Of a stretch of 64,000 nt of DNA, positions 1 through 58,365 are shown piece by piece (within the stretch, counting starts at the first letter, position 1; the number at the start of each line of letters is the position of its first letter). This DNA is from Candidatus Rifleibacteriota bacterium (lineage in GTDB: Bacteria; Muiribacteriota; Ozemobacteria; Ozemobacterales; Ozemobacteraceae): assembly GCA_012520995.1 (NCBI GenBank), contig JAAYNI010000046.1:42650-106649 (forward strand). The letters are read 5' to 3'. The notes beneath the pieces were generated by a model. That model saw only the letters and a program-made list of their open reading frames with translations, made no database searches and had not been told where the DNA came from. A program made the position numbers and the translations under genes.

Positions 1-1297
1 TGTAGAGGGTCTACTGGCTGAAAACATAAAAATTCTTGATTCTAATGCGAACGATCTGACAAGCCTAATAGAAGACGATGAAATCAAGCTGTTCAATGAA
101 ACTCAGGCACGTCACTTAAAAATTACCACTAACCGCGAAAAATCTCTTAAAGATCGCCTAACTAAAATTCTGCAAAGAGTCTTTGGCGTAGGCAATGTAG
201 AAGTTACTGTTTTTTTAGACATGGACTTCGACAAAAAAGAAGCTCTTAGAGATCTTGTAATTCCGCTTGAAGGAACAAACAGTGGTATAGTTCTTTCCGA
301 AAAGCTTGAGAATGAGGAATACAAAGGCAAAGATCTTGTAGAAGACGGCGAACCCGGAGTAAATTCGAACTTGCCTCCCGGCATGCCAGCCTATCCTTCC
401 ACAGATGAAGGCACCTACAATGAATACAAACGAGCAGGCACTACCAGAAACTATAAGATCAGCCAATCCAAAGAAAAATATATTAAAGAACAGGGCTCGA
501 TACGTCGAATGACCGCATCTGTTGTCATAAGCGGAGATCCTGAGCAGCTTAAAGCGATAGAAGACAAGATTACGGCAATAGCTCAAACAGCTATAGGTTT
601 TGACAAAGAAAGAGGCGACAAAATCACCGTAATGATCACGCCTTTTGAAAGCGAATCTGCCAAAAAAGCTCAGCGAGCTCTTGAATTAAAGAGGCTTCAG
701 GAGAAAAAAATGTTTAAAATATCCATAGCTGTCCTCCTCTCTATACCCATTCTGCTAGGATTAATTTATATTTTAAGCAGGCTTTCCAGAGCGAGGGCAA
801 TAGCCAAAGAGCAAAGACGTCTGCAAGACGCGGAACTCAGAGATGCAGAACTCAATCGTCTTAATGGGCAGCAAAACGAATACAGCCAAAGCCAACGGGA
901 ATTCGTTGATAGCGGATTTCAAAACATTCCCAACCTTTTTCCTGGAATAACCGACCCCGAAGAAAAGAACAACAAACTTCAGGAATTACGTATTCAAGCA
1001 TATCGATATGCTATGGCTAACGATGCTTTGCCCCCTAATTTCGAAAATATGACCCCCGAAGAGAAATATATTTTTAAAGAAGCTTTCACCAAGAAAGCAG
1101 AGGGCTCACTTGCTGCAGGGCTTGAAAATCTGGAAGCTATTTACGACAATCGCGAAAAGCTTAGAGAAGAAGAGCTTGCACGTCTGGACAGCGAAGCTCA
1201 TTCCCGTGAAGAACTTGAGCAACGCATTAGGGAATTAGTCTCCAGCAAACCTGAAGACGCTATAAAAGTTATGCGTCTCTGGCTTGCCAACAGTTAA
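1..1297 (+). CDS. fliF: Flagellar M-ring protein FliF, C-terminal part (5' end lies outside the window)
   Basis: The frame stays open from base 2 with no upstream stop, so the ORF continues leftward out of the window. It has the ...GVGNVEVTVFLDMDFD... block, a second TM helix (MFKISIAVLLSIPILLGLIYIL) and a charged C-terminal tail, as expected for the FliG-binding end of FliF. fliG follows directly. Confidence 0.8.
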   Translation, partial: VEGLLAENIKILDSNANDLTSLIEDDEIKLFNETQARHLKITTNREKSLKDRLTKILQRVFGVGNVEVTVFLDMDFDKKEALRDLVIPLEGTNSGIVLSEKLENEEYKGKDLVEDGEPGVNSNLPPGMPAYPSTDEGTYNEYKRAGTTRNYKISQSKEKYIKEQGSIRRMTASVVISGDPEQLKAIEDKITAIAQTAIGFDKERGDKITVMITPFESESAKKAQRALELKRLQEKKMFKISIAVLLSIPILLGLIYILSRLSRARAIAKEQRRLQDAELRDAELNRLNGQQNEYSQSQREFVDSGFQNIPNLFPGITDPEEKNNKLQELRIQAYRYAMANDALPPNFENMTPEEKYIFKEAFTKKAEGSLAAGLENLEAIYDNREKLREEELARLDSEAHSREELEQRIRELVSSKPEDAIKVMRLWLANS

Positions 1298-2797: not shown

Positions 2798-3912
2798 TCA
2801 AAGCTGGACAGCTGGAAATAAACCGAAACAAACCCTATAAAATAGAAAGCAAGCAAGCCTTTCCTGATCTAAAGCCTAAAAAGGCAACCTCAGGCTCAAG
2901 AGTATTTCAAGCTCTCTCACCCGAACTTTTGGCAGGTTTAGGAGAGCAAATAAAAACCTTTGAAACTCCCGAAGCCCCTCCTTCTCTAGAAGATGAAAAG
3001 CTTCATGAAACCATGCTTAATGAAGCTGAATCACTGAAAAAAACGAATGAAACCGCCTCCGAGGAAGATCTCCCTTCCGAGCAAGAAGCAAAAAAGCAAG
3101 AAACTTTATCACAAAATTATGAGCGTAAAAAACTAGAGCTTATAAAAAAAGAAGAAAACCTAAAACTACGAGAAGCCACTATTCAAAAACATGAGCGCGC
3201 ATATTACGAGCTTGAAAAAAAATTTCATGAAGAAACAGCCGAAATACGCAAAAACGCTGAAGCTGAAGCGGCAAACACGCTTAAAATAGCTAAAGAAGCT
3301 GCCGCTTCTATAATGGAATCCGCCAAAGCGGAAGCCGAAGCAATCAAAAAAACCATAAAAATCGAAGAAGAATCCGTAAAAGAAAAAGCCTATAAAGAAG
3401 GTTATTTTCTCGGTGAAGAAAAAGGAATTGAAGCAGGGGAAGAGCAAGGCAGACATGAAGCCGAACTGGATTTCAAAAGCTTGATGCAAGAGGCCGACAT
3501 GCTCATAAAGGAAATACAAAGTTCCAGGACCAGAATTCTAAAATCCGCAGAGGAAGATATGATAAAGCTGGTTTCCGCTTTTGCGAAAGCTGTATTGAAA
3601 ACCGAGCCGCAATTTGACAGGAAAATAGTTTTGAACAACTTGGATGCCGCCTTGGCAAAACTCTCACAAACAGAGAAGTTGACAGTCAGAATAAATATCA
3701 AAGACAAGGCAATGTGCAAAGATCATAAAGATAAGTTCATGACAAAACTCACAGGCAAGCCCGAACTTGAAATAGTAGAAGATCCTGGTTTATTGCCAGG
3801 CGGCATAAGGCTTGAAACTTCATCGGGCGCTATAGACGCGACAATAGAAACACAGACCGCAAAACTGGAAGAAGCTCTCTTTGAAGCTTACAGACTAAGC
3901 ATGGAACAATGA
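2785..3912 (+). CDS. fliH: Flagellar assembly protein FliH with a long K/E-rich N-terminus
   Basis: Sits between fliG and fliI. The C-terminal region (...LPGGIRLETSSGAIDATIETQTAKLEEALFEAYR) matches the FliH/ATP-synthase-b-like stalk. The first ~200 aa are low-complexity and charged. Confidence 0.7.
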   Translation: MGRIIKAGQLEINRNKPYKIESKQAFPDLKPKKATSGSRVFQALSPELLAGLGEQIKTFETPEAPPSLEDEKLHETMLNEAESLKKTNETASEEDLPSEQEAKKQETLSQNYERKKLELIKKEENLKLREATIQKHERAYYELEKKFHEETAEIRKNAEAEAANTLKIAKEAAASIMESAKAEAEAIKKTIKIEEESVKEKAYKEGYFLGEEKGIEAGEEQGRHEAELDFKSLMQEADMLIKEIQSSRTRILKSAEEDMIKLVSAFAKAVLKTEPQFDRKIVLNNLDAALAKLSQTEKLTVRINIKDKAMCKDHKDKFMTKLTGKPELEIVEDPGLLPGGIRLETSSGAIDATIETQTAKLEEALFEAYRLSMEQ

Positions 3913-46491: not shown

Positions 46492-46916
46492 ATTCACAAA
46501 ACTGCAAGCATTTGCGTATTCTTATTTCCTTAGTATTAGCCTTAGGAGCTTTACATCTTTTTATGAAGCCTCCAGTTACACAAGCAAAAGATATTTTCAA
46601 AGAGAGTCTGCAAAAGCTTGATGTAACAATATACAAACAAGGAAAAAAAATTGCGGTACAATCTGTAACTCAGTCTTACCAAACAGCCTCGCCCGAACTA
46701 ATCACTTTTAATGACGCAACCTATTCGGAATTAACAGCCTGTAAATATATTTCTCCTGCAATAGCCGATCAGATCATAAAAGAACGAAAGAAACGTCCTT
46801 TTGATGATTGGGATGATTTTTCAAAAAGAATCAAAGGCATGGGAAAAGAAAAAATCTCATACTATAAAACAATAGGTCTAAAAATAAACAGAGAGCAAAA
46901 ACTTGAGACCCCCTAA
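46479..46916 (+). CDS. comEA: ComEA-like helix-hairpin-helix DNA-binding protein
   Basis: Signal/TM segment plus C-terminal ...ITFNDATYSELTACKYISPAIADQIIKERKKRPFDDWDDFSKRIKGMGKEKI, which resembles the ComEA HhH domain. It directly precedes comEC. Confidence 0.5.
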   Translation: MPRLNSQNCKHLRILISLVLALGALHLFMKPPVTQAKDIFKESLQKLDVTIYKQGKKIAVQSVTQSYQTASPELITFNDATYSELTACKYISPAIADQIIKERKKRPFDDWDDFSKRIKGMGKEKISYYKTIGLKINREQKLETP

Positions 46917-49077
46917 GAATGTTGTCAAAACCCTGAAACTCGACACTGTGACTCTCTTCACAGCTCTTTTTATTTCAGGCCTCCTTGTATCTTCAATTTT
47001 CCCTACTGAGTATGCCCTCCTCTGGCTTGCAGCTTCAATTCTTTGCTTTGCGGCATCTTTCAAAGCAAAGAATAAAAAAGCTTTAATATCTTTGCTTGCT
47101 GCAGCTGCCATTTTAGCCTCCATGTTTTATGCTGCAGTCAAATTTACTCCAAGCTTAGCCACAAAAGATCTTCAAACCCTTGAGGGAACAAAAGGGGAAA
47201 TCACAGGCATATTTTCAGGTTCCATAAAAAAGCTGAAGGACGGCTCATGCTCATTTCTTTTACGTGAATCCTATTACAGAACAGGTGAAAGGCTCTTAAG
47301 TCTTCCTATGCCAATAAGATGTAAAGCTCCAGCATCTGCCTGCCACATAGTTTCAGACAGTAAAGTCACCTTAACAGGCTATATGGAGGCATTGCCAAAG
47401 AGCAACCGAGTCCGTTTTGAAGCTGAAAATTGCAAGCTGGGAGAAAAAATTATAAAGTCCCATGTTTTCGCCTATTTTGATACACTTAGAAACAAAATAA
47501 TCACAAAGCTTCAGAGCATTTTAAAACCCGAACATGCTTCTTTCATATCTGCCATAATATTTGGCGAAACTTCATTTTTGGAAAACAACGAACTCTATCG
47601 CAAAACGGGAATCACTCATTTAATGGCTGTCTCTGGTCAACATTTAATGATCTTGGCTTTATTTTTGACTGCGATTCTCTACAAAACAGGAGTTCCCCCT
47701 CTTTCCAGAATCATATTCGTATCTGTATGCCTCTTGTTTTATGCGTTATTAACGGCAGGTTCACCATCGGTTTGGAGAGCCTTGCTCATGTATGTTTTCG
47801 TAGCCTTGACAGCCTATTTGGATGCGGAACACGTGCCAACCAGAGCAATTTCAATAGCCGCCCTGCTTATTTTGCTTTATAACCCTGCAAATCTGTACAG
47901 CCCTGCCTTTGTGCTCAGCTTCATAGCAGTGTTGTCTATAATATTTTTAAGAAAGCCTCTTGAAAAACTATTTTCCAAGCTCCGCCTGCCCCAATCAGTC
48001 AACCGATACTTGGCTGCGAGTACTGCCGCAAACATAGGCACTTTACCAGCTTCAGCCTGTTTATTTGGCTCGCTGCCCATTTCAGGTCTCATTGTAAACC
48101 CGCTTATTCTCTGGATATTTGCATATATATTCCCAATGTCTTTTACAATAGCCATTCTAGCTCTTATATCGCCAGAATTCGCCTTAAAATTCGTTCCCTT
48201 TCTCTCACTTGTCTTAGATGGAGTGACAATATTTTTGGAGTTTTTTGAAAAAAACTTGGGTCTATATTTTGAGTTCAACAAAATCTCTCCCTTCATAGCC
48301 TCCTTGCTGTATGCGATATTATTTGCCGCTGCAGCTTATTTCAACAGAAAAGAAGCAGAAACAGCAAAAGAAACTGCCAACTCTCTTGAAACAATCCGAA
48401 AAAAACGTTCTCAGCGACAAAGACAAAATCGTATTGAACAAGAGACTCAAAGTGAAAAAGAAGAACCAAAAGCTATAAAAGTCCCTCCTAAAAGGAAAGC
48501 CTTGGAAAACAGAAATTTATTGCGCGAAATAGATAATAGACTGATGCAACTTCCAAGACTTCCTGTTAAAGGCTCAGAATTGAAAATACATCCTAAGCTT
48601 GATCCAAAGCTCCTTCAAATAAACGCACAAAACCTTTACCATCGTGTCATGGAAGCTGACTCAAAACTATACATGGAAAGTCCTGACAGACTTTTAGAAT
48701 CTTGCACATCTCTTTTAGGAATAGTTTCCATGGAACTTCTTTCAAGAGTTTCGAGACTTTCCTCCAAGCCCAATTTTTCTCCATCTGATATAAAAATTAA
48801 GTTTCGCGTGGAACACAGAGAATTAGCTATGGCAGCAATTACTGACAGCATATTGGCTCCAGCCTTCATAATAGAAGTTCCTGACGAAAAATTTAAAATA
48901 ATGCTCTCAGAACTCCAAGGATTGTTCAATAAAGCAAGCGACCTTCTTGAAGGCCTTCTCTCGCCAACAGATTTATCAAAACTCCAAAAAGATTATGAAC
49001 TGCTGCGCAGCGAGCTTTTTTCTTGGTGCAGCGACTTTATAACTCTAGATCTGAATCAAAAACACAAAAAACCTTAA
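46903..49077 (+). CDS. comEC: ComEC/Rec2-family DNA-uptake channel protein lacking the metallo-beta-lactamase domain
   Basis: Competence-domain signature TGITHLMAVSGQHLMILALFL and a multi-TM core. The C-terminal ~240 aa are charged and helical, with no HxHxDH motif. The only start codon I see is the TTG at 46903, which is uncertain. Confidence 0.7.
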   Translation: MRPPKNVVKTLKLDTVTLFTALFISGLLVSSIFPTEYALLWLAASILCFAASFKAKNKKALISLLAAAAILASMFYAAVKFTPSLATKDLQTLEGTKGEITGIFSGSIKKLKDGSCSFLLRESYYRTGERLLSLPMPIRCKAPASACHIVSDSKVTLTGYMEALPKSNRVRFEAENCKLGEKIIKSHVFAYFDTLRNKIITKLQSILKPEHASFISAIIFGETSFLENNELYRKTGITHLMAVSGQHLMILALFLTAILYKTGVPPLSRIIFVSVCLLFYALLTAGSPSVWRALLMYVFVALTAYLDAEHVPTRAISIAALLILLYNPANLYSPAFVLSFIAVLSIIFLRKPLEKLFSKLRLPQSVNRYLAASTAANIGTLPASACLFGSLPISGLIVNPLILWIFAYIFPMSFTIAILALISPEFALKFVPFLSLVLDGVTIFLEFFEKNLGLYFEFNKISPFIASLLYAILFAAAAYFNRKEAETAKETANSLETIRKKRSQRQRQNRIEQETQSEKEEPKAIKVPPKRKALENRNLLREIDNRLMQLPRLPVKGSELKIHPKLDPKLLQINAQNLYHRVMEADSKLYMESPDRLLESCTSLLGIVSMELLSRVSRLSSKPNFSPSDIKIKFRVEHRELAMAAITDSILAPAFIIEVPDEKFKIMLSELQGLFNKASDLLEGLLSPTDLSKLQKDYELLRSELFSWCSDFITLDLNQKHKKP

Positions 49078-49108
49078 TAATAAAATCTCCATGTTTCACA
49101 TGAAACCA

Positions 49109-49245
49109 CTAGTGCTGTGTAGCATCTAAATGTTTATTGTCGGACAGATTTTTTTCTATCCACAGATGGACACAGATAGGATTTTTAAGCTAGCTTAAAA
49201 ATCAGTGCTGGGTGGTGAGTGACGAGTTGAATTATTTAGATTCAA
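49109..49245. repeat. Copy C of the dispersed intergenic element (ctagtgctgtgtagcatctaaa ... gtgagtgacgagttgaatt)
   Basis: Matches element B (61006-61130) at both blocks with similar spacing, and shares the 5' block with element A. Confidence 0.5.
49180..49203. promoter_or_regulatory. Perfect 24-bp palindrome gatttttaagctagcttaaaaatc upstream of the second pilin operon
   Basis: Self-complementary over all 24 nt. It lies about 230 nt upstream of the 49431 start codon. Confidence 0.5.
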
Positions 49246-49430
49246 ACACTAAAACTGACAACTGCTTTAAGATGCTAATAAATAGTCGAAACTTTAAGAT
49301 TTGAAAAATAGAGAACAACCTTGATGCAACTTTAATATACCAGACAGCAACAGAAAAGGCGGTTCACTTGCCCCCATTTTCCTTCTCATGTTAAAGTCTA
49401 TAGGCGACTTAATACATTTGGAAATTTAAC

Positions 49431-49889
49431 ATGATATCTCGTATAAAAAATGCCTATACTCTTCCAGAGCTTCTGATTACTGTTTTGCTGCTGGCAATAC
49501 TGCTATCCTTGGGCATTGTTTTTTCCTCAATAATGGCAAAAGGGCAAAAAAACAAGAGTTATGCAGTCGCTCTAGCTTTTGCTCAGCAAGCCATAGAGTT
49601 GGCAAGAGGCGCTCCCTTTGAAATCTTAAGTTCATCTGATGCTGGTGAAGCCAGTGTTGAATATGATCTGAATAACAAATCCAGCGACAATGATTTGCTT
49701 ATTCCTACTTTAGAAAACGGTGAAGCTGTTTATACCAGAACAGTGAAAATAAGAGACATAAAAACAAAAGATGACCCTGACAGTAACGCTGGCTTGAAAC
49801 ATATCAGCGTAAAAGTTGAATGGATCTCCCCTGAAAATAACAAGCCTGATACTCTTGAAATTAACTCGCTGATAGCCAATATCAACTAA
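49431..49889 (+). CDS. Prepilin-type pseudopilin/minor pilin
   Basis: N-terminus MISRIKNAYTLPELLITVLLLAILLSLGIV. Confidence 0.65.
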   Translation: MISRIKNAYTLPELLITVLLLAILLSLGIVFSSIMAKGQKNKSYAVALAFAQQAIELARGAPFEILSSSDAGEASVEYDLNNKSSDNDLLIPTLENGEAVYTRTVKIRDIKTKDDPDSNAGLKHISVKVEWISPENNKPDTLEINSLIANIN

Positions 49890-49890
49890 T

Positions 49891-50640
49891 ATGTACAAAA
49901 GTTTCAACAAAAACCTATCGGAAAAAAGAGCCTTCACTCTAACAGAGATGTTATTGGCCTTAGCTCTCACCGCAATGGTTTTAGCAGCCGCTTACAAAGT
50001 TTTTATTGAACAACAAAAACTGGTGAAATTTTCGGTTGAAACCGTTCATGCAAATGAATCTTTCAGAAAAGTGACCTTCTTTATGGGAGAAGACATAAAG
50101 AAAGCCACCCGCATAGTCAGACCTACGCCAGTTCCATTGGCCTCCGCTTCCGAGCTGATAACAAAAGTCGGCACTATTATGACCGTACAGACTTCCGAGA
50201 TAGATCCAAGAATCAAATTTGACAGTTCTCTTGGCACGCAGATTGCCAAGAGAACTCACATTGACTACGAGCTGGAACTTATGCCAAACTTCAATGAAGA
50301 TTCCGAAGAAGTGCCCGTTTACAGACTAATACGAAATGCCGTTCTCGACGAGGAAGACGGAACCCATTCAGGACAAAGACAAGTGATAGCGGAAAACATA
50401 CAAGATCTTATAATCTACAGAACTGTTCGCGAGCCATTCAAAATTCATTCACTCTCAGAACCTTCAGATCGCATGATTGAGCCTAGAAGTCTAAGCGAAA
50501 CAGGAACAGGCAATAATATAATACACGTAAAAATGGCTATCGAGCGTGACAGATATAAAAAAGAAAAGGGCTCGGTTTACTCGGTTACTATGGAAACCTC
50601 CTTTTACAAACGCGGAAAAGAGATATTCCTGAACCCATGA
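49891..50640 (+). CDS. Prepilin-type minor pilin (PilW/GspJ-like)
   Basis: N-terminus ...KRAFTLTEMLLALALTAMVLAAAYKVF. Confidence 0.6.
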   Translation: MYKSFNKNLSEKRAFTLTEMLLALALTAMVLAAAYKVFIEQQKLVKFSVETVHANESFRKVTFFMGEDIKKATRIVRPTPVPLASASELITKVGTIMTVQTSEIDPRIKFDSSLGTQIAKRTHIDYELELMPNFNEDSEEVPVYRLIRNAVLDEEDGTHSGQRQVIAENIQDLIIYRTVREPFKIHSLSEPSDRMIEPRSLSETGTGNNIIHVKMAIERDRYKKEKGSVYSVTMETSFYKRGKEIFLNP

Positions 50641-52886
50641 AAAATTTGCTGAATTCAAAAAGAGGATACGGAATTATCATTGTCATTCTTTTCATGACAG
50701 TGATGTTTGTATTGTTCGCCGTTTATTTTAAGATGCAAAGCGCTCATTCCTTTTTATATTCCAAGCATGTCAGACGCTCAGTCGCTTCAAACCTTGCGGA
50801 AGGCGTTTTAAACTGCATTATTGCCGAACTGGATGCTAACAGAACATTCGCCACTCACTGGAACTACGACGCAAAAGACACATACACTTTCAAAAGCCCT
50901 GTAAAAAGCCGTGAAACATCCTTGGGGCCTATACCAAACTTTAAAATTGGAGGAGTAAAAAACGGAATTTACTATGGAAGCAGCGACTATGGCACTTTTA
51001 AAGCAAAGTTCGCCCCTTGCTTCGGAGGCTTCGAAAACCCAAAAACCAAAACTCTTTCTGAAAGCAGCATGTACACAAAAGCCGAGATAGCAGTTAAAAC
51101 TGAGGCTGGAAAAACCTCAAAAGATGAGCCTGTCTGCATCAAACTTTCAGCTATTCTCGAAAGACGATTCCCTTCGGCAGAACATGCTCTATATGACGGA
51201 GAAGTATTAGACATAGGCGCTTTGGGTCCATATAACAGCAGCCCCAACGAAATTCGCAGAGCAAGACTTTACGGACATCACTCCATTTTCTTCACTTCAA
51301 AAGGCGCAGGCGATCATGGAACAGAGCTTTTCGAAATTGAAAAAATCGAAACTCCAGGAATGATAAGAGTTACATCAGATACAGATGTCAAATTTTCTGA
51401 CAACACCTCTACTGTGCTGTGCCCTGAAAACGACTCTTTGAACATAACCGCCTTCAACTCTTTTGAAGGCTATCTGATAGACGGCACACATGGAGCTCAC
51501 TCTATAAAACTGAATCGCATTCCTAAAGAGAGATTGCTGAATTACGTGCAAACATATAAGAAAAGCTCTGGAGTTTACATAGACAGTTCGACTTTGCCAG
51601 AATCTGAATATAGAAATCCTTATGATCCTCAAACAAAGTATTACGATCTTGACTTCGGCGAATACAGATTAACAAGCGAGGGCGAAAAACTCGGAAGCGA
51701 CGATCCAAAATGTATAAAAGAAAAAAACGGAGAAAAAATTGTTGTTTATTCAAAAGTTCCCTTAAGAATATGGGGCTCTCCCGACAAAAGCATAACCATC
51801 TACAGCGAAAAAGATATTGTTATAGCCGGTGATTACAACCAAAAGCATTCGACAAGACAAGTATATAAGGACAACCGATATTTAGACTATGCTACAAGAA
51901 TTTACAACGGGAAATACAACCATAAAGTAGGCTCTCTGATAATGACCGAAGGAAGAATAATCATAGACTATTCTGATCCTTCTCTATTTGCAAAAAACGA
52001 AATAAAGCCATATTTTCTTTGGAAACTTGCTGAAAGCATGAATCCCTATTCCCAGAAAATAGCCGGCGAAATCAAAACCGCCCTAGCTCCTCCAGATCCC
52101 TCTGAGAGAACAGCTATTTTCGGAGTTGAAGAAAACATAGACGCTACAGGCAAACTTATACCCAGACTTGGCACCATAGCGTTTCTCTACAACTTTCCTG
52201 AAGTTGATGAAGGCGGCAGCTATAATGCAAACATGGAAGACCTCATAGCATTTTTCACTCCAGGAACTCCAAAATCCATATTCCCTATAAAAAATACACA
52301 GGGTCGCGAAGAGCTTATAGAAATAATTAAGGATGCTTGCAGAACAAACGGCGATTTGACGCTAGCAGAGCAAGATGAAATATTCAACTTTGCTTGGCAA
52401 AAAGCTCTAGAAGACCGTAAAGAAGCTCCTGACGAAAAATGTGCAATAATGGAGATAATTCCCCATCTCTTTAAGGATGCCGCCAAAGACCACAGGGACG
52501 GTCTATTTATACCGGAAATGACAATAAACTCTTTCCTGATCAGTTCAGAAAAACGTTCCTCAATCTGGAGACAAGGCAATAATTCCAACAAGGCCATGGA
52601 TGAAATAGGCAACGTCGGAGATAAGAAATATATTAAACCGCCAGGATTTATAATACTTAGAATTTACGGCGGATATGCTCGTATAGGACGAAAAGAACCT
52701 TCATATTTTATTTCAGGAGAACATACCACAAAAACAGGAGTTCTCAGACGCATAGTCTGGGACAATACTAACCTGACAAATCAAGACTATCGCCCATTAG
52801 AGCAGCCTGTTACCCACAACGTGCTGACAATAAGCGAAACTTTAATAACAGAAAAAGAATATGAAGAGTTTAGCGGCAAAGAATAA
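50637..52886 (+). CDS. Large pilus-associated protein (PilX/PilY1-like position), N-terminally membrane-anchored
   Basis: 749 aa. N-terminal TM GIIIVILFMTVMFVLFAVYF; overlaps the upstream pilin stop. No recognisable catalytic motif. Confidence 0.45.
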   Translation: MKNLLNSKRGYGIIIVILFMTVMFVLFAVYFKMQSAHSFLYSKHVRRSVASNLAEGVLNCIIAELDANRTFATHWNYDAKDTYTFKSPVKSRETSLGPIPNFKIGGVKNGIYYGSSDYGTFKAKFAPCFGGFENPKTKTLSESSMYTKAEIAVKTEAGKTSKDEPVCIKLSAILERRFPSAEHALYDGEVLDIGALGPYNSSPNEIRRARLYGHHSIFFTSKGAGDHGTELFEIEKIETPGMIRVTSDTDVKFSDNTSTVLCPENDSLNITAFNSFEGYLIDGTHGAHSIKLNRIPKERLLNYVQTYKKSSGVYIDSSTLPESEYRNPYDPQTKYYDLDFGEYRLTSEGEKLGSDDPKCIKEKNGEKIVVYSKVPLRIWGSPDKSITIYSEKDIVIAGDYNQKHSTRQVYKDNRYLDYATRIYNGKYNHKVGSLIMTEGRIIIDYSDPSLFAKNEIKPYFLWKLAESMNPYSQKIAGEIKTALAPPDPSERTAIFGVEENIDATGKLIPRLGTIAFLYNFPEVDEGGSYNANMEDLIAFFTPGTPKSIFPIKNTQGREELIEIIKDACRTNGDLTLAEQDEIFNFAWQKALEDRKEAPDEKCAIMEIIPHLFKDAAKDHRDGLFIPEMTINSFLISSEKRSSIWRQGNNSNKAMDEIGNVGDKKYIKPPGFIILRIYGGYARIGRKEPSYFISGEHTTKTGVLRRIVWDNTNLTNQDYRPLEQPVTHNVLTISETLITEKEYEEFSGKE

Positions 52887-52892
52887 AAGCCT

Positions 52893-53261
52893 TCAAAATA
52901 TAACTGGTTTAGGCGAAGCATTTATAGCGACAACAAGATCAAAGTGATTGGCTAATCTGCCTGCCCTGAGAGAGTTTTTAATTTTAAATTTTGTGACAGC
53001 CTGTTCCGAAACAAGGATTCTGACTCCAGCTTTTTCCAGCTCAAGAACTGCCGGCAAGAGCTTATGACCTTCCGAACAAACCTCAGCCGCTTCATTCCAG
53101 AAAACCACTGTTTCAGGCACATTGTAATTTTCAGCCAAAGCTTCTAAAAAGGATTCAAAAGAGCTGACTCCCAAGTCGTTATTTTCGCCTATATAAGGTT
53201 TGGTAAACATTATAAGATAGGGAAGCAATCTCTCAGGAGGTTCCCAGATATTCTGTCGCAT
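52893..53261 (-). CDS. DsrE/DsrF (YchN)-like small protein
   Basis: 122 aa with a layout reminiscent of the DsrE fold (hydrophobic N-terminal strand, ...VVFWNEAAEVCSEGHKLL..., C-terminal ...DLVVAINASPKPVIF). Weak. Confidence 0.35.
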   Translation of the reverse strand: MRQNIWEPPERLLPYLIMFTKPYIGENNDLGVSSFESFLEALAENYNVPETVVFWNEAAEVCSEGHKLLPAVLELEKAGVRILVSEQAVTKFKIKNSLRAGRLANHFDLVVAINASPKPVIF

Positions 53262-53373
53262 TGATAGATACTCGAAAAATATATCCTGTTTAATATTATT
53301 GCTCCTTAGTGTGATCCCTAAGAAATTGTACTATAACAAAAAGAAAAATTGAAGATTAATTATTTCTATATTC

Positions 53374-53402
53374 TTGACAGAGATAAGGCAGTGTGCTAAT
53401 TT
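53374..53402 (+). promoter_or_regulatory. Candidate promoter (-35 TTGACA, TG-extended -10 TGCTAATTT)
   Basis: TTGACA at 53374-53379, 17-nt spacer, TAATTT at 53397-53402 preceded by TG. It lies 95 nt upstream of the ATG at 53497. Confidence 0.4.
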
Positions 53403-53496
53403 TGTTATGTTATTAAGCCCGGAAAAGCTGACGGGTATATTATCTTTTAAACAGCCTCTAAATACTTAGGAGGACTTGAAAGGAGACTTGTTTTAC

Positions 53497-54270
53497 ATGA
53501 TGAAACGCATCTCAATTATAGCGACGGCAATACTTTTTATCTCTGCCGCATTTACCGCTACCGCTGCAGACAGTGTGCTGTTGCAATATAATCCCGCAGC
53601 AGGAACCACAACCAAGTATCAGATGAATCTGAAGGGCAATACAACTGTTGCCGCTTATGGGCGCTCCCAGACCACCAACCTTGAAACCAATATGCTGATC
53701 CAGCAAAAGGTTACAGGCGTTGATAGAGTCGGCAATGTCACCATGGAAACCCTTATTATGGATGGCAAAATCCTGATTAACGGTCAAGCCACACAGCTCC
53801 CTGAACTCGGCAACCTCACAACCGTCAAAATGGCAAAAGACGGCGAAATTCTTGAGCAATCTGAAGGCATGGGCGATGCTACACAGCAAAACGCTCAAAT
53901 GCAAATCAGATTCCCCAAAACTCCCGTAAGCGTAGGTCATACTTGGAAAAGCAGAATTGAACCCAATCCTCAGCTTCCCATTCCTATGGAAACAACCTAT
54001 GAAATCGTTTCCCTCACCGAAATGGTTAATGGTGAAAAATGTGCTGTTATCAAATCTACAGTCACAACCGACAAAGCAGCTGGCGGCAGCATCAACCTTG
54101 ATGTCAGAGCTGACGGCACAATCTGGTTTGCCTATGAAAAAGGCATAATGCTCAGAAACGAAGTCAGATCCAGAATGCTCATGCTCATGCAAAACGATAT
54201 GGGCGACGGCAACAAAGAAAACATTCAGACCAGAATGAATCTCATTCTCAGAATGGATGTAGTAAAATAA
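53497..54270 (+). CDS. Secreted hypothetical protein (beta-rich)
   Basis: Start at the ATG at 53497 after AGGAGG / AAAGGAGA. Signal peptide MMKRISIIATAILFISAAFTATAA. Confidence 0.5.
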   Translation: MMKRISIIATAILFISAAFTATAADSVLLQYNPAAGTTTKYQMNLKGNTTVAAYGRSQTTNLETNMLIQQKVTGVDRVGNVTMETLIMDGKILINGQATQLPELGNLTTVKMAKDGEILEQSEGMGDATQQNAQMQIRFPKTPVSVGHTWKSRIEPNPQLPIPMETTYEIVSLTEMVNGEKCAVIKSTVTTDKAAGGSINLDVRADGTIWFAYEKGIMLRNEVRSRMLMLMQNDMGDGNKENIQTRMNLILRMDVVK

Positions 54271-54282
54271 TTTGTCGACCTC

Positions 54283-54311
54283 TTGACGTTTCCCGTACAT
54301 AACCGTATAAT
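54283..54311 (+). promoter_or_regulatory. Strong sigma70-type promoter (TTGACG-17-TATAAT)
   Basis: TTGACG at 54283-54288, exactly 17 nt, TATAAT at 54306-54311. It lies about 80 nt upstream of an intrinsic terminator. Confidence 0.55.
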
Positions 54312-54394
54312 TGTTGTAAAGCATCAAGCTAGGCTCATTGACAACAATATATGGAGTTGGAAACCAGCTTAACGGCTATTAACTTTGTGTTCTT

Positions 54395-54430
54395 GGCTCC
54401 GCTTTTACCCGAGGCGGAGCCTTTTTATAT
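54395..54430 (+). terminator. Rho-independent terminator (ggctccgc-loop-gcggagcc + T-run)
   Basis: 8-bp GC-rich stem at 54395-54402 and 54414-54421, then TTTTTATAT. Confidence 0.7.
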
Positions 54431-54513
54431 ATCCCGATACTACCCGGTATCACGTTCTTTTTTTTACCTACCCAATCAATATCACTACACTTCTTTATGA
54501 AGGAGGACAATCT

Positions 54514-55422
54514 ATGAGATTGACTAAGAGGCTTATGCGACTGACAGCAGCTACTCTCGTAGTAACCGTGCTGTTCATGACAATGCTCACAGCTCCCGCA
54601 GAAGCCGCCGGACTCTTCTCCAGGCTCAAAAAGACAGCAACTGAGAAGAAGTCTCCTGTCAAGACAGCTCTTGTAGGTGTAGCTGCGGTTGGCGGCGCTA
54701 TTCTGGCAGCCCCACTTCTGTCCACTGCTCTCGGATTCGCATCCGGTTCAGTTGCAGGTTTGGCTGGCGGAGCGACGACAGCGTTGGCTGCAGCAGGTAC
54801 TGGCTTGGCTGGAATCGGAGGCGCAATTTGGGGTGGACTATCAGCTGCAGGCGGTTTCGTAACAGGCGCTATTGGCGCACTGGGCGGAGCATTAGGCAGT
54901 ATGTTCGCAGGGATTGCAGGCTTCATTGGTTCAATTATCTCAAGTCCGTTGCTTGTCCCGGCTCTTTTGATAGCAGGAGCAGCAGTTGCAGGTTATTATC
55001 TGTATAAGAAATACAAGAGACAACCCCAGACCATAACCAACAGCAACAATATTCCCGCAAAGAAAGCAGACGCCATCAAGCAACAACCGGTCACAACCGT
55101 AACAGCTCATAAGGCTGAGATACCAATAGCAGCTTCACAAGCGCAAACACAAGCACAAGAAGAAACGGCTATGCCCGTTACACAAGGAAATGCGCCGCTG
55201 CCAGCAGTATCAGGCTCTGATGAACTCACTCAGGCTCACGCCGCTTACGTAAAAGCATATAACGACTATATGAGTAAGGTAACAAGAATCGGCGGCTCTG
55301 AAAATCCTGATGAGGAAATGAGATCCAATATGCTCCGCGATGACACTCAGCAAGCTCTGAACGAATATCGCAAGGCATATAACAAGTATGTGACTCTCTT
55401 GAGAGCGAACAAAAGCAAGTAG
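54514..55422 (+). CDS. Secreted/membrane Gly-Ala-rich glycine-zipper protein with conserved C-terminal YRKAYNxY motif
   Basis: Start at the ATG at 54514 (AAGGAGG ribosome-binding site). Signal peptide, about 130 aa of GxxxG/A-rich hydrophobic sequence, a basic KKYKRQP stop-transfer segment, and C-terminal ...QALNEYRKAYNKYVTLLRA. Confidence 0.6.
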   Translation: MRLTKRLMRLTAATLVVTVLFMTMLTAPAEAAGLFSRLKKTATEKKSPVKTALVGVAAVGGAILAAPLLSTALGFASGSVAGLAGGATTALAAAGTGLAGIGGAIWGGLSAAGGFVTGAIGALGGALGSMFAGIAGFIGSIISSPLLVPALLIAGAAVAGYYLYKKYKRQPQTITNSNNIPAKKADAIKQQPVTTVTAHKAEIPIAASQAQTQAQEETAMPVTQGNAPLPAVSGSDELTQAHAAYVKAYNDYMSKVTRIGGSENPDEEMRSNMLRDDTQQALNEYRKAYNKYVTLLRANKSK

Positions 55423-55433
55423 CCCTGAATAAA

Positions 55434-55467
55434 ATACCCGGGAGTTCTTCCCGGGTATTTTTATTTT
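55434..55467 (+). terminator. Rho-independent terminator (atacccggg-loop-ccgggtat + T-run)
   Basis: Stem at 55434-55442 and 55451-55458, followed by TTTTATTTT. Confidence 0.7.
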
Positions 55468-55743
55468 AGCCAAAATGAAAAATACAAGAACTTTTGAAAG
55501 CACAAAAACAAAAAAAAGTTTTTTACTACGAAAAATCATATAAACCATAGAAACCAGAATGTCGTTTTTTTTTCTGATGTAGAGTTTTGCCGGTTTTCAG
55601 ACCATCTCCACTCTTTATCAGCAAAATTTTAGAAGCACATATACCTATAAACTGTAAATAAATTTGTCCTTCTTCTACTGGTTTTTTAGCTCTAGAGCCT
55701 TTATACTGCTTATAGATAATATTTAATACAGAAAGAGGATTAA

Positions 55744-58365
55744 ATGAAAAGAAAAATTTTTATTCTGCTTCTTTTGCTTTTGATATTGCCCCCCTTTTTT
55801 ACACCTTATAAAGCTCATGCAACATCAGAGCAAAATCCCGTAGAGATTATTGGCACATGGAATCTGATCAACAAAAAAGAATATCATGACACTGAAATTC
55901 TTCAGGTATTGCCTACTCGCGACGGAAAGATAAACACTCTTTCAATTGATCAAAATGGAACCTTTGTAAATACTCGTTACGAAGAAAGTCGCCTTAACTT
56001 TAACAAACAAGGGCAAAAACTCCCTCAATACGAAATGAAAGATGGGGGCACAACTAGAACAGTAAATTCTTGGACTTGCAGCGGCAACCTTTTGAAATTG
56101 AAAAACCGAGGCGACTGGTATTATGAACTAAAAGACAATAATCTCTGGCTGAAAGATCGTGCTGAAAATGCAAGAGTAATACGTGTGTTCAGCAAAACAA
56201 AACAACCTTCGCCATTGCCTGGCGATCTTCTTCTGGGAACATGGCATATGACTCAGCTGAAAGAGTATCATGATTCTGAACCTCTTCAGGTATGGCCTAA
56301 CCAAGCAGGAGAAACAAACACTCTGCAAATAAATAAAGACGGAACTCATACTACCATAAACTATCAAAAAGAGCGTCTTAATTTTGAGCGACATGGTTAT
56401 AACTTGCCACAATATGAAATAAAAACTGGAGATACAGTAACCCAAAAAGAAGGTCACTGCAAAGCTTACAATAACTCTGTCTTGTGGCTGGAAGGACAAG
56501 ATGCTTGGGCATACAAACTTAAAAACGACAATCAGGAATTGTGGCTCCAAGATCGTGCCGACAAACCAAATACAATATATGTTTACTCTAAAACTCCGCC
56601 GAAAAGCACCTTACCCTCTACGGAGCTTATAGGCACTTGGCATATAATCAAACAAAAAGAGTATCATGATTCTGAACCTCTTCAGGTATGGCCTAACCAA
56701 TCAGAAAAAACTCATACTCTGGTAATCAATAAAGACGGAACCCACTCAAGAACTGATTATGAACAATATCGTCTCAATTTCAACAACTATGGTCATGAGT
56801 TGTCACAATATCAAATAAAGGATGGAGGCACAGCAGTCCAAAAAGAAGGCTACGCTAAATCCTATTATGACAATGTTTTATGGCTGGAAGGCAAAGACAA
56901 CTGCACATACGAATTAAAAAACGACAATCAGGAGTTGTGGCTGAAAAACCGTGTCAAAGATGCCAATACAATATATATTTACAGCAAGAAGTCGCCACAA
57001 AACACCTTGCCGACTGCTGATTTGACAGGCACTTGGCACATGATTCAGCTTAAAGAGTATCATGATTCTGAACCCTTCAAGATATGGCCTACCGAAGACG
57101 GAAAAAACAACACTCTAATTATTAATAAAGACGGAACTCATACTACCATAAACTATCAAAAAGAGCGTCTTAATCTCAGCCGCTACGGTTATGAGCAATT
57201 ACAATACCAAATAAAGAATGAAGTCTCAGAAAAGAAGGAAGGATACGCTAAATCTTATTACGGCGATGTTTTGCGATTAGAGAATCAGGAAGACTGGTAT
57301 TACGAACTTAAAGGCAACGAATTATACCTTAAGAATCGCCTTAAAGATGCCAATACAATACGTATTTACAGCAAAACTCCTCCACAAAGCCCTTTACCGC
57401 AAGCATCTCTCATTGGCACATGGAATATCTATAAGATAAAATGGCATGACAGCGATCTGCATAGGGTAACACCACACGAAGATGGAAATAGAGACAGCAT
57501 AACTATTGATGCAAAAGGAACCCACTCAAGCGCTACTTATAACCACAGCCGCCGCCAATTTGCAAACGAAGAAAAAACATATACAACACACGGCGATCCG
57601 AAAAAACGCTCAGGTTTCTGCAGATCATATTTTGGAAATGTTCTAATACTTGAAAATATGGGAACCTTCAGTTATGAAGTTAATGACAATGAACTGAGCC
57701 TTAAGGATCTCCCAACAGACCCTCGAAGCATTGACCTTTACAAAAAAGTTTCTTCACCGAAAACCCCAGCAGAGGGCACAGCCGTTGCAACAAAACCTGT
57801 CACCTCTGACACAAAAGTTTCAGGAGCAACTCAAGAAGCAAAGACTGGAGCTACCAGCACAAAAACTTCAGGAACAACCCAAGGAACAAAGACTGAAACT
57901 GCTGGCACAAAAACTTCAGGAACAACTCAAGAAGCAAAGACCGGAGCTACTGGCAAAAAAACTACAGATTCAGCTCAAGAAGCAAAAACTGGAGCTGCCG
58001 GCACAAAAACTACAGGTTCAACCCAAGAAACAAAGACTGGAACTACTGGCACAAAAGCTTCGGGAACAACCCAAGGAACAAAGACGACCTCGCCCACACA
58101 AAAGACGCAAACATACGATGAAGCATATGACACAGATATACCGCCTTTTCCTGCAAATCTGCCTGTTCCAACAGAAGAAGATGACTATGAATTTATGCAG
58201 GTTTATCTAGATTACGTAACAACGCATAAAGAATACACAATTCTTAAAGCTTCAGCTAAAGAACTCGGCGTCCGCATACCTCCAGGCAAACTTGAACAAG
58301 CGCTGGACGCTTATCGGAAGGCATATAACAGATATAAAAATATGGCTCTCACCAGGAAGAAGTGA
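55744..58365 (+). CDS. Large secreted protein: 5 tandem ~130-aa GTW-motif domains + Thr/Gly/Lys-rich 13-aa repeats + conserved C-terminal YRKAYNxY motif
   Basis: AGAGGA ribosome-binding site; signal peptide. Five repeats each begin L(I/L/T)GTW(N/H)...KEYHDSEPLQVWP, then TSGTTQEAKTGAT-type repeats, then a C-terminal ...QALDAYRKAYNRYKNMAL. Confidence 0.7.
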   Translation: MKRKIFILLLLLLILPPFFTPYKAHATSEQNPVEIIGTWNLINKKEYHDTEILQVLPTRDGKINTLSIDQNGTFVNTRYEESRLNFNKQGQKLPQYEMKDGGTTRTVNSWTCSGNLLKLKNRGDWYYELKDNNLWLKDRAENARVIRVFSKTKQPSPLPGDLLLGTWHMTQLKEYHDSEPLQVWPNQAGETNTLQINKDGTHTTINYQKERLNFERHGYNLPQYEIKTGDTVTQKEGHCKAYNNSVLWLEGQDAWAYKLKNDNQELWLQDRADKPNTIYVYSKTPPKSTLPSTELIGTWHIIKQKEYHDSEPLQVWPNQSEKTHTLVINKDGTHSRTDYEQYRLNFNNYGHELSQYQIKDGGTAVQKEGYAKSYYDNVLWLEGKDNCTYELKNDNQELWLKNRVKDANTIYIYSKKSPQNTLPTADLTGTWHMIQLKEYHDSEPFKIWPTEDGKNNTLIINKDGTHTTINYQKERLNLSRYGYEQLQYQIKNEVSEKKEGYAKSYYGDVLRLENQEDWYYELKGNELYLKNRLKDANTIRIYSKTPPQSPLPQASLIGTWNIYKIKWHDSDLHRVTPHEDGNRDSITIDAKGTHSSATYNHSRRQFANEEKTYTTHGDPKKRSGFCRSYFGNVLILENMGTFSYEVNDNELSLKDLPTDPRSIDLYKKVSSPKTPAEGTAVATKPVTSDTKVSGATQEAKTGATSTKTSGTTQGTKTETAGTKTSGTTQEAKTGATGKKTTDSAQEAKTGAAGTKTTGSTQETKTGTTGTKASGTTQGTKTTSPTQKTQTYDEAYDTDIPPFPANLPVPTEEDDYEFMQVYLDYVTTHKEYTILKASAKELGVRIPPGKLEQALDAYRKAYNRYKNMALTRKK
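55846..57790 (+). repeat. Five in-frame tandem coding repeats, period about 384-396 nt
   Basis: The GTW codon triplets recur at 55852, 56236, 56632, 57028 and 57415. Repeats 2-4 share long near-identical DNA stretches, for example aaagagtatcatgattctgaacctcttcaggtatggcctaaccaa. Confidence 0.8.
57780..58110 (+). repeat. About 39-nt (13-aa) tandem repeats encoding a Thr/Gly/Lys-rich linker
   Basis: Repeating acaaaaacttcaggaacaac(c/t)caag(g/a)a(a/g)caaagac(t/c)gga... units, about 7-8 copies. Confidence 0.75.

Follow-up and report, generated by a model that had tools for sequence, protein, structure and literature searches.

A conserved leader at a compact gene junction of uncultured Riflebacteria, a candidate promoter-embedded attenuator that may select transcripts by their origin

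The trp, his and pheA leaders of enterobacteria are organized as mutually exclusive 1:2, 2:3 and 3:4 helices, which compete kinetically and of which the terminator is the most stable. Here we describe a leader with a similar predicted organization in a 64,000-nucleotide (nt) stretch of DNA from a Candidatus Rifleibacteriota bacterium (contig JAAYNI010000046.1; hereafter, the window), where it lies on the plus strand between a gene for a DUF6263-like protein and a gene for a Gly/Ala-rich membrane protein. In trp-type attenuators, a leader peptide with regulatory codons is translated and the position of the ribosome decides the outcome. By contrast, segment 1 of the present leader lies in the spacer of a promoter, and its availability would be set by whether or not it is transcribed. 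No conserved leader open reading frame (ORF) was found among 41 leaders, each from a full-length orthologous locus with sufficient upstream DNA that a scan of species-representative genomes had returned; just three of the 41 have a closed ATG ORF, and these ORFs are mutually unrelated. Because the defining leader peptide is absent, we do not count the leader as a member of the trp type.

Other described systems share single features with this junction. In the "preemptor" attenuation of the plasmids pT181, pIP501 and pAMbeta1, a 5′ segment decides whether a terminator forms, also with no leader peptide. Whereas a countertranscript acting in trans sequesters the preemptor in those plasmids, the deciding segment here would be present or absent in cis, depending on the promoter used. 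In lambda sib/tI retroregulation and in early-transcribed-sequence effects, the outcome at one and the same terminator region varies with the promoter of origin. Retroregulation in lambda works through N-mediated antitermination and RNase III, and the early-transcribed-sequence effects come from engineered or phage templates. The present junction differs from both in being a conserved chromosomal arrangement, with the putative anti-antiterminator encoded by the promoter spacer itself. Riboswitches, T-boxes and ribonucleic antiterminator (RAT)/BglG-type systems also have an antiterminator that overlaps the terminator 5′ arm, but this leader has no Rfam match, no conserved aptamer-like core was identified in it, and our best model needs no factor. 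Type I small RNAs (sRNAs) from 3′ untranslated regions (UTRs), such as DapZ and MicL, resemble it in having a promoter at the end of a gene and an RNA that shares the terminator of that gene; here, however, the RNA must enter the next gene, the region past the terminator is conserved, and the antiterminator covaries. The boxA elements of ribosomal RNA (rRNA) operons, suhB and clustered regularly interspaced short palindromic repeat (CRISPR) leaders (PMC5725501, PMC7665894) offer a possible further likeness: a single-stranded box of 12 nt, placed close to the 5′ end of a lengthy untranslated RNA, with a C-rich, rut-like tract downstream. The systems known to use boxA act against Rho, but the boxA-like box here is followed by an intrinsic terminator. 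A literature search found no precedent for an origin-dependent terminator of this design, although that search was shallow and is not proof of absence.

Conservation of the leader upstream of orthologues, on which an earlier note on this DNA had made its proposal of a regulatory leader depend, proved extensive. The promoter, an invariant box, the hairpin and its U-tract are present in 40-41 of the 41 genome loci and in all 22 further loci supplied by a later metagenome scan, at intergenic GC contents of 28-54%. A co-directional DUF6263-like gene is the immediate upstream neighbour at 40 of the 41 genome loci and at every one of the 22 metagenome loci. The intergenic region of the orthologous loci measures 243-439 nt, and conservation of the plus strand spans all of it. 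From 5′ to 3′, the elements follow one another as promoter, invariant box, segment 2, variable hairpin, terminator, a second hairpin (HP2), ACCY repeats, a pyrimidine-rich G-poor stretch and a Shine-Dalgarno (SD) sequence. Rfam 15 at gathering score returned no match other than transfer RNAs (tRNAs) for the window and 20 orthologous loci, its E-value mode gave matches at chance level, and a tRNA search found none at the leader site. Judged by its sequence, the leader is a new conserved RNA motif that is not in Rfam and occurs phylum-wide in uncultured Riflebacteria.

The promoter stands immediately behind the upstream gene. In the window, the upstream stop codon precedes the -35 hexamer by 12 nt, which is also the median distance across orthologues and leaves the upstream gene no space for a separate terminator. 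TTGACG-17-TATAAT scores 11/12 and is the top promoter-like site within 52000-57000; on either strand of 438 kb (the window and related loci), the strict pattern TTGAC[GA]-17-TATAAT occurs nowhere but at this junction. It is kept in 40 of the 41 orthologous intergenic regions, and the remaining one has a 19-nt spacer. Sigma-70 promoter spacing predicts a transcription start near 54318. Short contigs starting at the predicted start were sought, and the three that were examined are genomic and contain the upstream gene. In none of the 41 lineages does the stretch from hairpin to ATG contain a promoter-like site of 10/12 or better, so the downstream gene needs read-through.

The hairpin that stands in the way, GGCTCCGCTTT/GAGGCGGAGCC, has 11 base pairs (bp), a 5-nt loop and an energy of about -19.9 kcal/mol, and is followed by the U-tract TTTTTATATAT. 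Overall, the stem has 11-13 bp at about -20 to -22 kcal/mol. Pairing reaches 99.4% in 41 orthologues, seven of the 12 pairs show compensatory changes, and the 10 nt that follow the stem core include five or more U in 39 of the 41 and six or more in 34. By stem and U-tract alike, it is a predicted intrinsic (Rho-independent) terminator. Thus, the promoter, the hairpin with T-run and the downstream start codon that the earlier note had read from the window were all correctly placed, and an SD sequence precedes that start codon.

Segment 2 (consensus CGGAAUCCAGU) lies just 3′ of the invariant box and can pair with either segment 1 or segment 3. In the window, the 2:3 pairing joins 54352-54360 (UGGAGUUGG) to 54393-54401 (UUGGCUCCG) in a duplex of -12.0 kcal/mol that covers seven of the 11 bases of the terminator 5′ arm, and an equivalent pairing recurs lineage by lineage in differing sequences. 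On a MAFFT alignment, 2:3 is 83.9% paired, compared with 23-49% when the partner is slid by 1-3 columns; both sides change at seven of 10 pairs, and the observed score was reached by none of 500 shuffles. When the nascent RNA is folded as it stands ahead of 3′ arm synthesis, the terminator 5′ arm pairs upstream in 38 of 40 lineages. The earlier note had proposed a different antiterminator, ggctc (54331-54335) pairing with the gagcc of the terminator arm. That pairing found no support, as its bases belong to the invariant box GCTCATTGACAA and its flank and have no covarying partner.

The strand opposing segment 2 on its other side is the promoter spacer, whose conservation has no apparent reason in promoter function. 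In the window, the 1:2 pairing consists of GUUUCC/GGAAAC (54288-54293 with 54359-54364) and CAUA/UAUG (54298-54301 with 54350-54353). The spacer is complementary to segment 2 across clades, in sequences that differ in at least 12 lineages: the consensus is GGAUUCC/GGAAUCC, whereas the pairs are UUGGGUACCG/CGGUACCCGA in L040 (-25.6 kcal/mol), CGGGUCCCGU/ACGGGACCCG in L031, GCUUCCGA/UCGGAAGC in L047, CUCUUAAG/CUUAAGAG in L050 and UUGGCU..UCCGUA/UACGGAGCCAA in L030. Many lineages have an additional pairing, of a conserved downstream (A)AGCG with the CGC that closes the -35 hexamer. Spacer variants from outside the sample, contributed by the later metagenome scan (L068, L073 and L081), are again complementary to segment 2 of the same leader. 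When columns of the MAFFT alignment are counted, the two registers of 1:2 reach 64.5% and 68% pairing, compared with 29-59% in slid controls, and two to three of 500 shuffles attain the covariation score. A covariance-model alignment of 47 leaders gave 64.3% paired, compared with 25-39% when slid, and a covariation score of 0.259, compared with 0.195 in shuffles (none of 500 attained it) and no more than 0.10 in slid alignments. Over both alignments, the score is 0.26-0.28, compared with 0.20-0.21 in shuffles. An operator palindrome was considered for the 1:2 complementarity and was rejected by inference, its half-sites being about 60 bp apart and covarying rather than conserved.

Given that pairing registers differ between clades, we used an alignment-free test on 17 lineage representatives: duplex energies computed by RNAduplex for segments and their own partners were set against those from 20000 partner permutations. 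For 1:2, own partners averaged -15.20 kcal/mol and permuted partners -10.35 +/- 0.76 kcal/mol (0 of 20000 permutations as low); for 2:3, -12.54 and -10.16 +/- 0.61 kcal/mol (p = 5e-5); and for 3:4, -17.93 and -13.21 +/- 0.72 kcal/mol (0 of 20000). Own partners thus exceeded permuted ones by 6.4 standard deviations in 1:2 and 3.9 in 2:3. The control pairings 1:3, 1:4 and 2:4 gave no signal in the same test (p = 0.43-0.69), so a shared base composition or GC content is not the cause. The covariation analysis of orthologous leaders that the earlier note had recommended therefore yielded 1:2, 2:3 and 3:4 helices that are maintained by lineage-specific compensatory changes, and the prediction of three mutually exclusive helices is well supported.

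We propose, with a probability of roughly 0.55, that the leader is a promoter-embedded attenuator that selects by transcript origin. As segment 1 lies between the -35 and -10 hexamers, ahead of the embedded start, only RNA started upstream contains it. In RNA of the upstream gene, segment 1 would form 1:2, leaving segment 3 free to form the 3:4 terminator, and this RNA would end at the U-tract, which would be the 3′ end of the upstream messenger RNA (mRNA). RNA from the embedded promoter would start near 54318 and lack segment 1, so that segment 2 could capture segment 3 as it emerges; the resulting 2:3 helix would pre-empt the terminator, and polymerase would continue into the Gly/Ala-rich gene. 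The input to such a switch would be the start point of the transcript, neither a ligand nor a leader peptide. A short RNA of about 105-110 nt could still arise from incomplete antitermination. The stronger statement, that the leader works as an RNA "one-way valve" whose terminator is selective for upstream transcripts, whose promoter spacer encodes the anti-antiterminator and whose sole input is origin, we would back at even odds.

Two lineages serve as natural experiments, and both fit the origin-selective reading. In L019 (2784-3000), the upstream neighbour is divergent; the consensus promoter is kept, and the 190-nt leader has no box, hairpin or ACCC repeats. In L039 (1790-1890, 2030-2060), the upstream gene has a canonical terminator of its own, AAACGGGCGCC...GGCGCCCGTTT, ahead of the promoter; the leader hairpin is retained, and its U-tract has decayed to UCUUGCAGUC, among the two poorest of all lineages. 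Several results weigh against this reading. Each of the natural experiments rests on one lineage, and L019 is also the most divergent orthologue. In the clade of L021, L043, L048, L076 and L084, the 1:2 duplex is no better than that of shuffled spacers, and in the window itself both the 1:2 (-9.5 kcal/mol) and the 2:3 duplexes belong to the weaker examples; in leaders of consensus lineages, such as L013 and L040, the 1:2 duplex is much more stable (-14 to -26 kcal/mol). From the MAFFT alignment of promoter to segment 2, RNAalifold derives no 1:2 helix, because the pairing register differs between lineages. Once the 3′ arm has been made, every lineage favours the terminator as its minimum-free-energy structure, with a margin of about 12 kcal/mol, and the equilibrium effect of segment 1 is modest: the terminator 5′ arm is sequestered with a probability of 0.68 in promoter-origin RNA and 0.53 in upstream-origin RNA, and 29 of 37 lineages have the lower value in upstream-origin RNA. 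Read-through would therefore have to rest on kinetics, as it does in classical attenuators. Finally, selection by origin leaves the 12-nt box, the UUACCCG loop and the ACCC repeats unexplained, and an additional factor is likely. The coordinates of the features are collected in Table 1.

Table 1. Features of the leader and its flanking genes, in window coordinates.
Feature	Position	Strand	Basis or remark
Upstream gene, DUF6263-like secreted or lipoprotein-like protein, 257 aa	53497-54270	+	ORF and gene call
-35 hexamer TTGACG	54283-54288	+	promoter scan
Segment 1, promoter spacer, putative anti-antiterminator strand	54288-54305	+	
-10 hexamer TATAAT	54306-54311	+	promoter scan
Invariant boxA-like 12-mer GCTCATTGACAA (RNA GCUCAUUGACAA)	54333-54344	+	column conservation
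Segment 2, putative antiterminator 5′ strand, pairs with segment 1 or 3	54350-54367	+	
Variable linker	54368-54392	+	short in the window; in most lineages a variable hairpin (P2), then conserved GGUAC
Segment 3, terminator 5′ arm	54393-54405 (arm proper 54395-54405)	+	
Terminator loop TACCC	54406-54410	+	family consensus U(U)ACCCG, same as HP2 loop
Segment 4, terminator 3′ arm	54411-54421	+	
U-tract	54422-54432	+	
HP2, GATAC-TACCCG-GTATC	54436-54451	+	loop motif as in terminator
T8 run, 6 nt after HP2	54458-54465	+	specific to the lineage of the window
ACCTACCC, member of ACCY repeat cluster	54466-54473	+	cluster includes both hairpin loops
SD AAGGAGG of downstream gene	54500-54506	+	
Start codon ATG of downstream gene	54514	+	
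Downstream gene, 302-aa Gly/Ala-rich membrane protein	54514-55422	+	Tyr-rich C-terminal domain
Terminator of Gly/Ala-rich gene, strong, 14 bp, AAAATACCCGGGAG...CCCGGGTATTTT then TATTTT	55431-55461		

The invariant box begins about 23 nt after the -10 hexamer and follows the pattern G-N-U-C-N-U-U-G-A-N-A-A (consensus GGUCUUUGAAAA). It matches the published boxA consensus GYTCTTTAANA (PMC5725501) at nine of 11 positions, departing from the gamma-proteobacterial (E. coli) consensus at positions 2 and 8. Position 10 is free in the box, like the N of the consensus, and positions 2 and 5 are also free, where the consensus has Y and T. In L013 and L018, the box reads GTTCTTTGAAAA, identical to the first 12 bases of the mycoplasma detection primer GTTCTTTGAAAACTGAAT (PMC3019172). 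The window and the orthologous loci contain no rRNA genes. The primer presumably lies in the 16S-23S rRNA spacer, at the spacer boxA. A 5′ hairpin, P0, between the 5′ end of the transcript (CAAGAU) and the invariant box was rejected, its own and cross-lineage energies being equal.

Between segment 2 and the terminator, the GGUAC that follows P2 is missing in several lineages, the window among them, and for this reason a candidate pseudoknot between GGUAC and the UACC of the loops and repeats was dropped. A GGTACC palindrome adjoins the 5′ side of the -35 hexamer in most loci (for example, L013:1133-1140), and its pairing with the region 3′ of P2 in upstream-origin RNA, designated helix 0, gave a weak permutation signal (p = 0.009).

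Beyond the terminator, HP2 occurs in about 28 of the 41 lineages as CGAUAC-UUACCCG-GUAUCG, and a high-GC clade has extra ACCC repeats instead. In the window, HP2 together with the T8 run (54436-54465) resembles a weak second terminator. The ACCY repeats take the form UUACCUACCUACCC or (CCCAA[A])n, with a mean of 5.7 copies, and at least four [AT]ACCC within 80 nt are found in this leader alone in about 400 kb, on both strands. Past the hairpin, the UTR has mean contents of 29% C and 13% G across lineages; in the window, it contains 23 C and four G in 78 nt, which is at about the 99th percentile of the window and not its extreme. The C-rich tract is predicted to be unpaired. Two other roles for the repeats were considered and rejected. 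Twenty-two folds of read-through leaders gave no consistent partner for the SD sequence, the repeats remaining unpaired, which disposed of an anti-SD role, and binding repeats for a response regulator were rejected by inference, as the spacing of 4-7 nt is non-helical. In many lineages, although not in the window, two SD-like AAGGAGGAA boxes about 55 nt apart bracket a GGAUC...GAUCC hairpin. This arrangement occurs about 60-90 nt before the ATG in L013, L014, L015, L018, L028, L036-L038, L042 and L049, and also in L023, L026, L027 and L040; no conserved small ORF follows the first box. The leader of L029 holds a (GTTCTCT)x5 tandem repeat at 2960-3000, a place occupied by unique sequence in the closely related L024, L025 and L044.

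The unexplained elements invite other explanations, of which some would add to selection by origin and others would replace it. The 12-nt box could act as a boxA that loads NusB/NusE, with the ACCC tract as a Rho site. Such a module would be compatible with the proposed attenuator: as a secondary layer, the box could recruit NusB/NusE and thereby shield a long, C-rich, G-poor leader from Rho. We consider this module possible but doubtful, and we say the same of its extended form, in which processive antitermination sets expression and the hairpin serves mainly as the terminator of the upstream gene. The near-match to the boxA consensus, the resemblance of the L013 and L018 boxes to the mycoplasma primer, and an unstructured, G-poor UTR rich in ACCY copies all speak for it. 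However, rrn-type antitermination mainly counters Rho, not intrinsic terminators, the box deviates from the E. coli consensus at two positions, the repeats constitute a specific motif, (U/A)ACCC, rather than mere C-richness, and the covariation in 1:2 and 2:3 would go unaccounted for. A boxA combined with a Rho loading site is thus a coherent but less certain secondary layer, and a sequence-specific RNA-binding protein for the UUACCCG loops and ACCC repeats is equally possible. A protein or a ligand could also be the main input, in a factor-controlled attenuator in which binding to the 5′ domain (the box, the P2 junction GGUAC and AAGCG) tunes 2:3 and 1:2 is secondary. Given a terminator favoured by about 12 kcal/mol, a factor that stabilizes 2:3 would be sensible; the terminator and antiterminator covary as this explanation expects, the invariant single-stranded nucleotides are beyond the reach of the origin model, and the UUACCCG loop on two hairpins, together with the ACCC repeats, resembles a multi-site protein platform. 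Nevertheless, we regard such control as unlikely: neither the window nor its orthologues match an Rfam family, the enclosed region is mostly variable in sequence and length, the ACCC repeats lie 3′ of the termination point and so cannot affect that decision, and it does not account for a covariation between spacer and segment 2 that is as strong as that between the terminator arms. Of the attenuator or riboswitch that the earlier note had envisaged, the attenuator class is thus upheld by the conserved promoter, the terminator and the covarying antiterminator, but a known riboswitch is not, there being no Rfam match.

The earlier note had alternatively read the locus as an independent sRNA. In this explanation, a trans-acting RNA of about 105-110 nt with a C-rich loop as seed, or a 3′-UTR-type sRNA sharing the upstream terminator, is made here and the downstream gene is expressed separately. 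C-rich unpaired loops are typical sRNA seeds, and a short RNA would be delimited by its own promoter of consensus strength and by a U-tailed hairpin of the Hfq-binding kind; in addition, the 113-nt RNA folds better than its shuffled versions (z = -2.56). Yet the gene has no promoter-like site of its own behind the hairpin in any of the 41 lineages, conservation on the same strand runs past the terminator through HP2 and the ACCY repeats to the SD sequence, and a covarying antiterminator has no role in a simple sRNA. Moreover, the element is always beside this gene in the DNA examined, and in L019 the promoter leads straight into the gene with no such sRNA in between. An independent sRNA is therefore improbable as the main function. 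We give a very low probability to a plain arrangement with no switch at all, in which the hairpin stops both classes of RNA, the downstream gene lives on leaky read-through and the complementarity is a by-product. The minimum-free-energy status of the terminator in all lineages and the small equilibrium effect of segment 1 are what such an arrangement predicts, but a consensus promoter firing into an efficient terminator throughout a phylum would be wasteful, and a by-product would not be expected to outdo permuted partners in 1:2 and 2:3 while three control pairings remain null, or to show compensatory changes in many lineages.

The genes on either side of the leader have recognizable relatives. 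The upstream protein matches PF19777 weakly. Most orthologous loci have four to six clustered tRNA genes, encoded by the opposite strand, some 0.7-0.9 kb ahead of the DUF6263-like gene (at about 400-1270, minus strand, in L012, L015, L016, L020, L023, L024, L026 and L028, as well as L031, L032, L034, L035, L037, L039 and L040); the window has no tRNA gene. Further upstream in the window, 46903-52886 encodes ComEC (PF03772), two proteins with N-terminal methylation motifs (pseudopilins) and a 749-aa protein with a similar N-terminus, which suggests a competence or type IV pilus-like cluster. The strong terminator behind the Gly/Ala-rich gene makes that gene a monocistronic unit. Identical copies of its product are encoded on biogas-fermenter contigs, and about 90 full-length relatives at 46-61% identity are named Candidatus Riflebacteria, Rifleibacterium or Ozemobacteraceae. 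The 302-aa protein and a neighbouring 873-aa repeat protein have in common a Tyr-rich C-terminal domain, AYxxY...ALxxYRKAYNRY (at 55186-55419 and 58060-58362; 31% identity, E = 2e-7), which has no Pfam match and appears to be specific to the phylum. Paralogues of the Gly/Ala-rich protein have their own CTTGACG-17-TAnnAT promoter and a short leader, at L051:2700-2830, L058:2690-2812, L060:2670-2800 and L061:1045-1160, and also at L095:1677-1770, L096:1261-1350 and L052/L056:2640-2730. These leaders have a G-rich SD sequence, GGGGGU, and a small hairpin that covaries, in the form GGGU-ACAC(A)-ACCC, AGGGU-ACACA-ACCCU or GAAGGU-ACACA-ACUUUC. They have neither a terminator nor a boxA-like box, and the covariance model of the main leader matches them weakly (E = 0.04-0.85).

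Terminators are usually seen as context-free stops, and promoter spacers as neutral save for their length. At this junction, the covariation between a promoter spacer and an RNA segment downstream of it is as strong as that between the two terminator arms, and the motif also contains a boxA-like box and an ACCC-repeat platform. The origin-selective model is directly testable with two templates and a few point mutations. If it is true, one terminator would end one mRNA and yet be nearly invisible to the promoter that precedes it, giving neighbouring genes a compact insulation. It would offer synthetic biology a new design principle and would be a reason why terminator predictions and operon calls can err. 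Promoter DNA would double as a regulatory RNA segment, and the same logic may hide at other compact bacterial junctions in which a promoter lies before the terminator of the previous gene.

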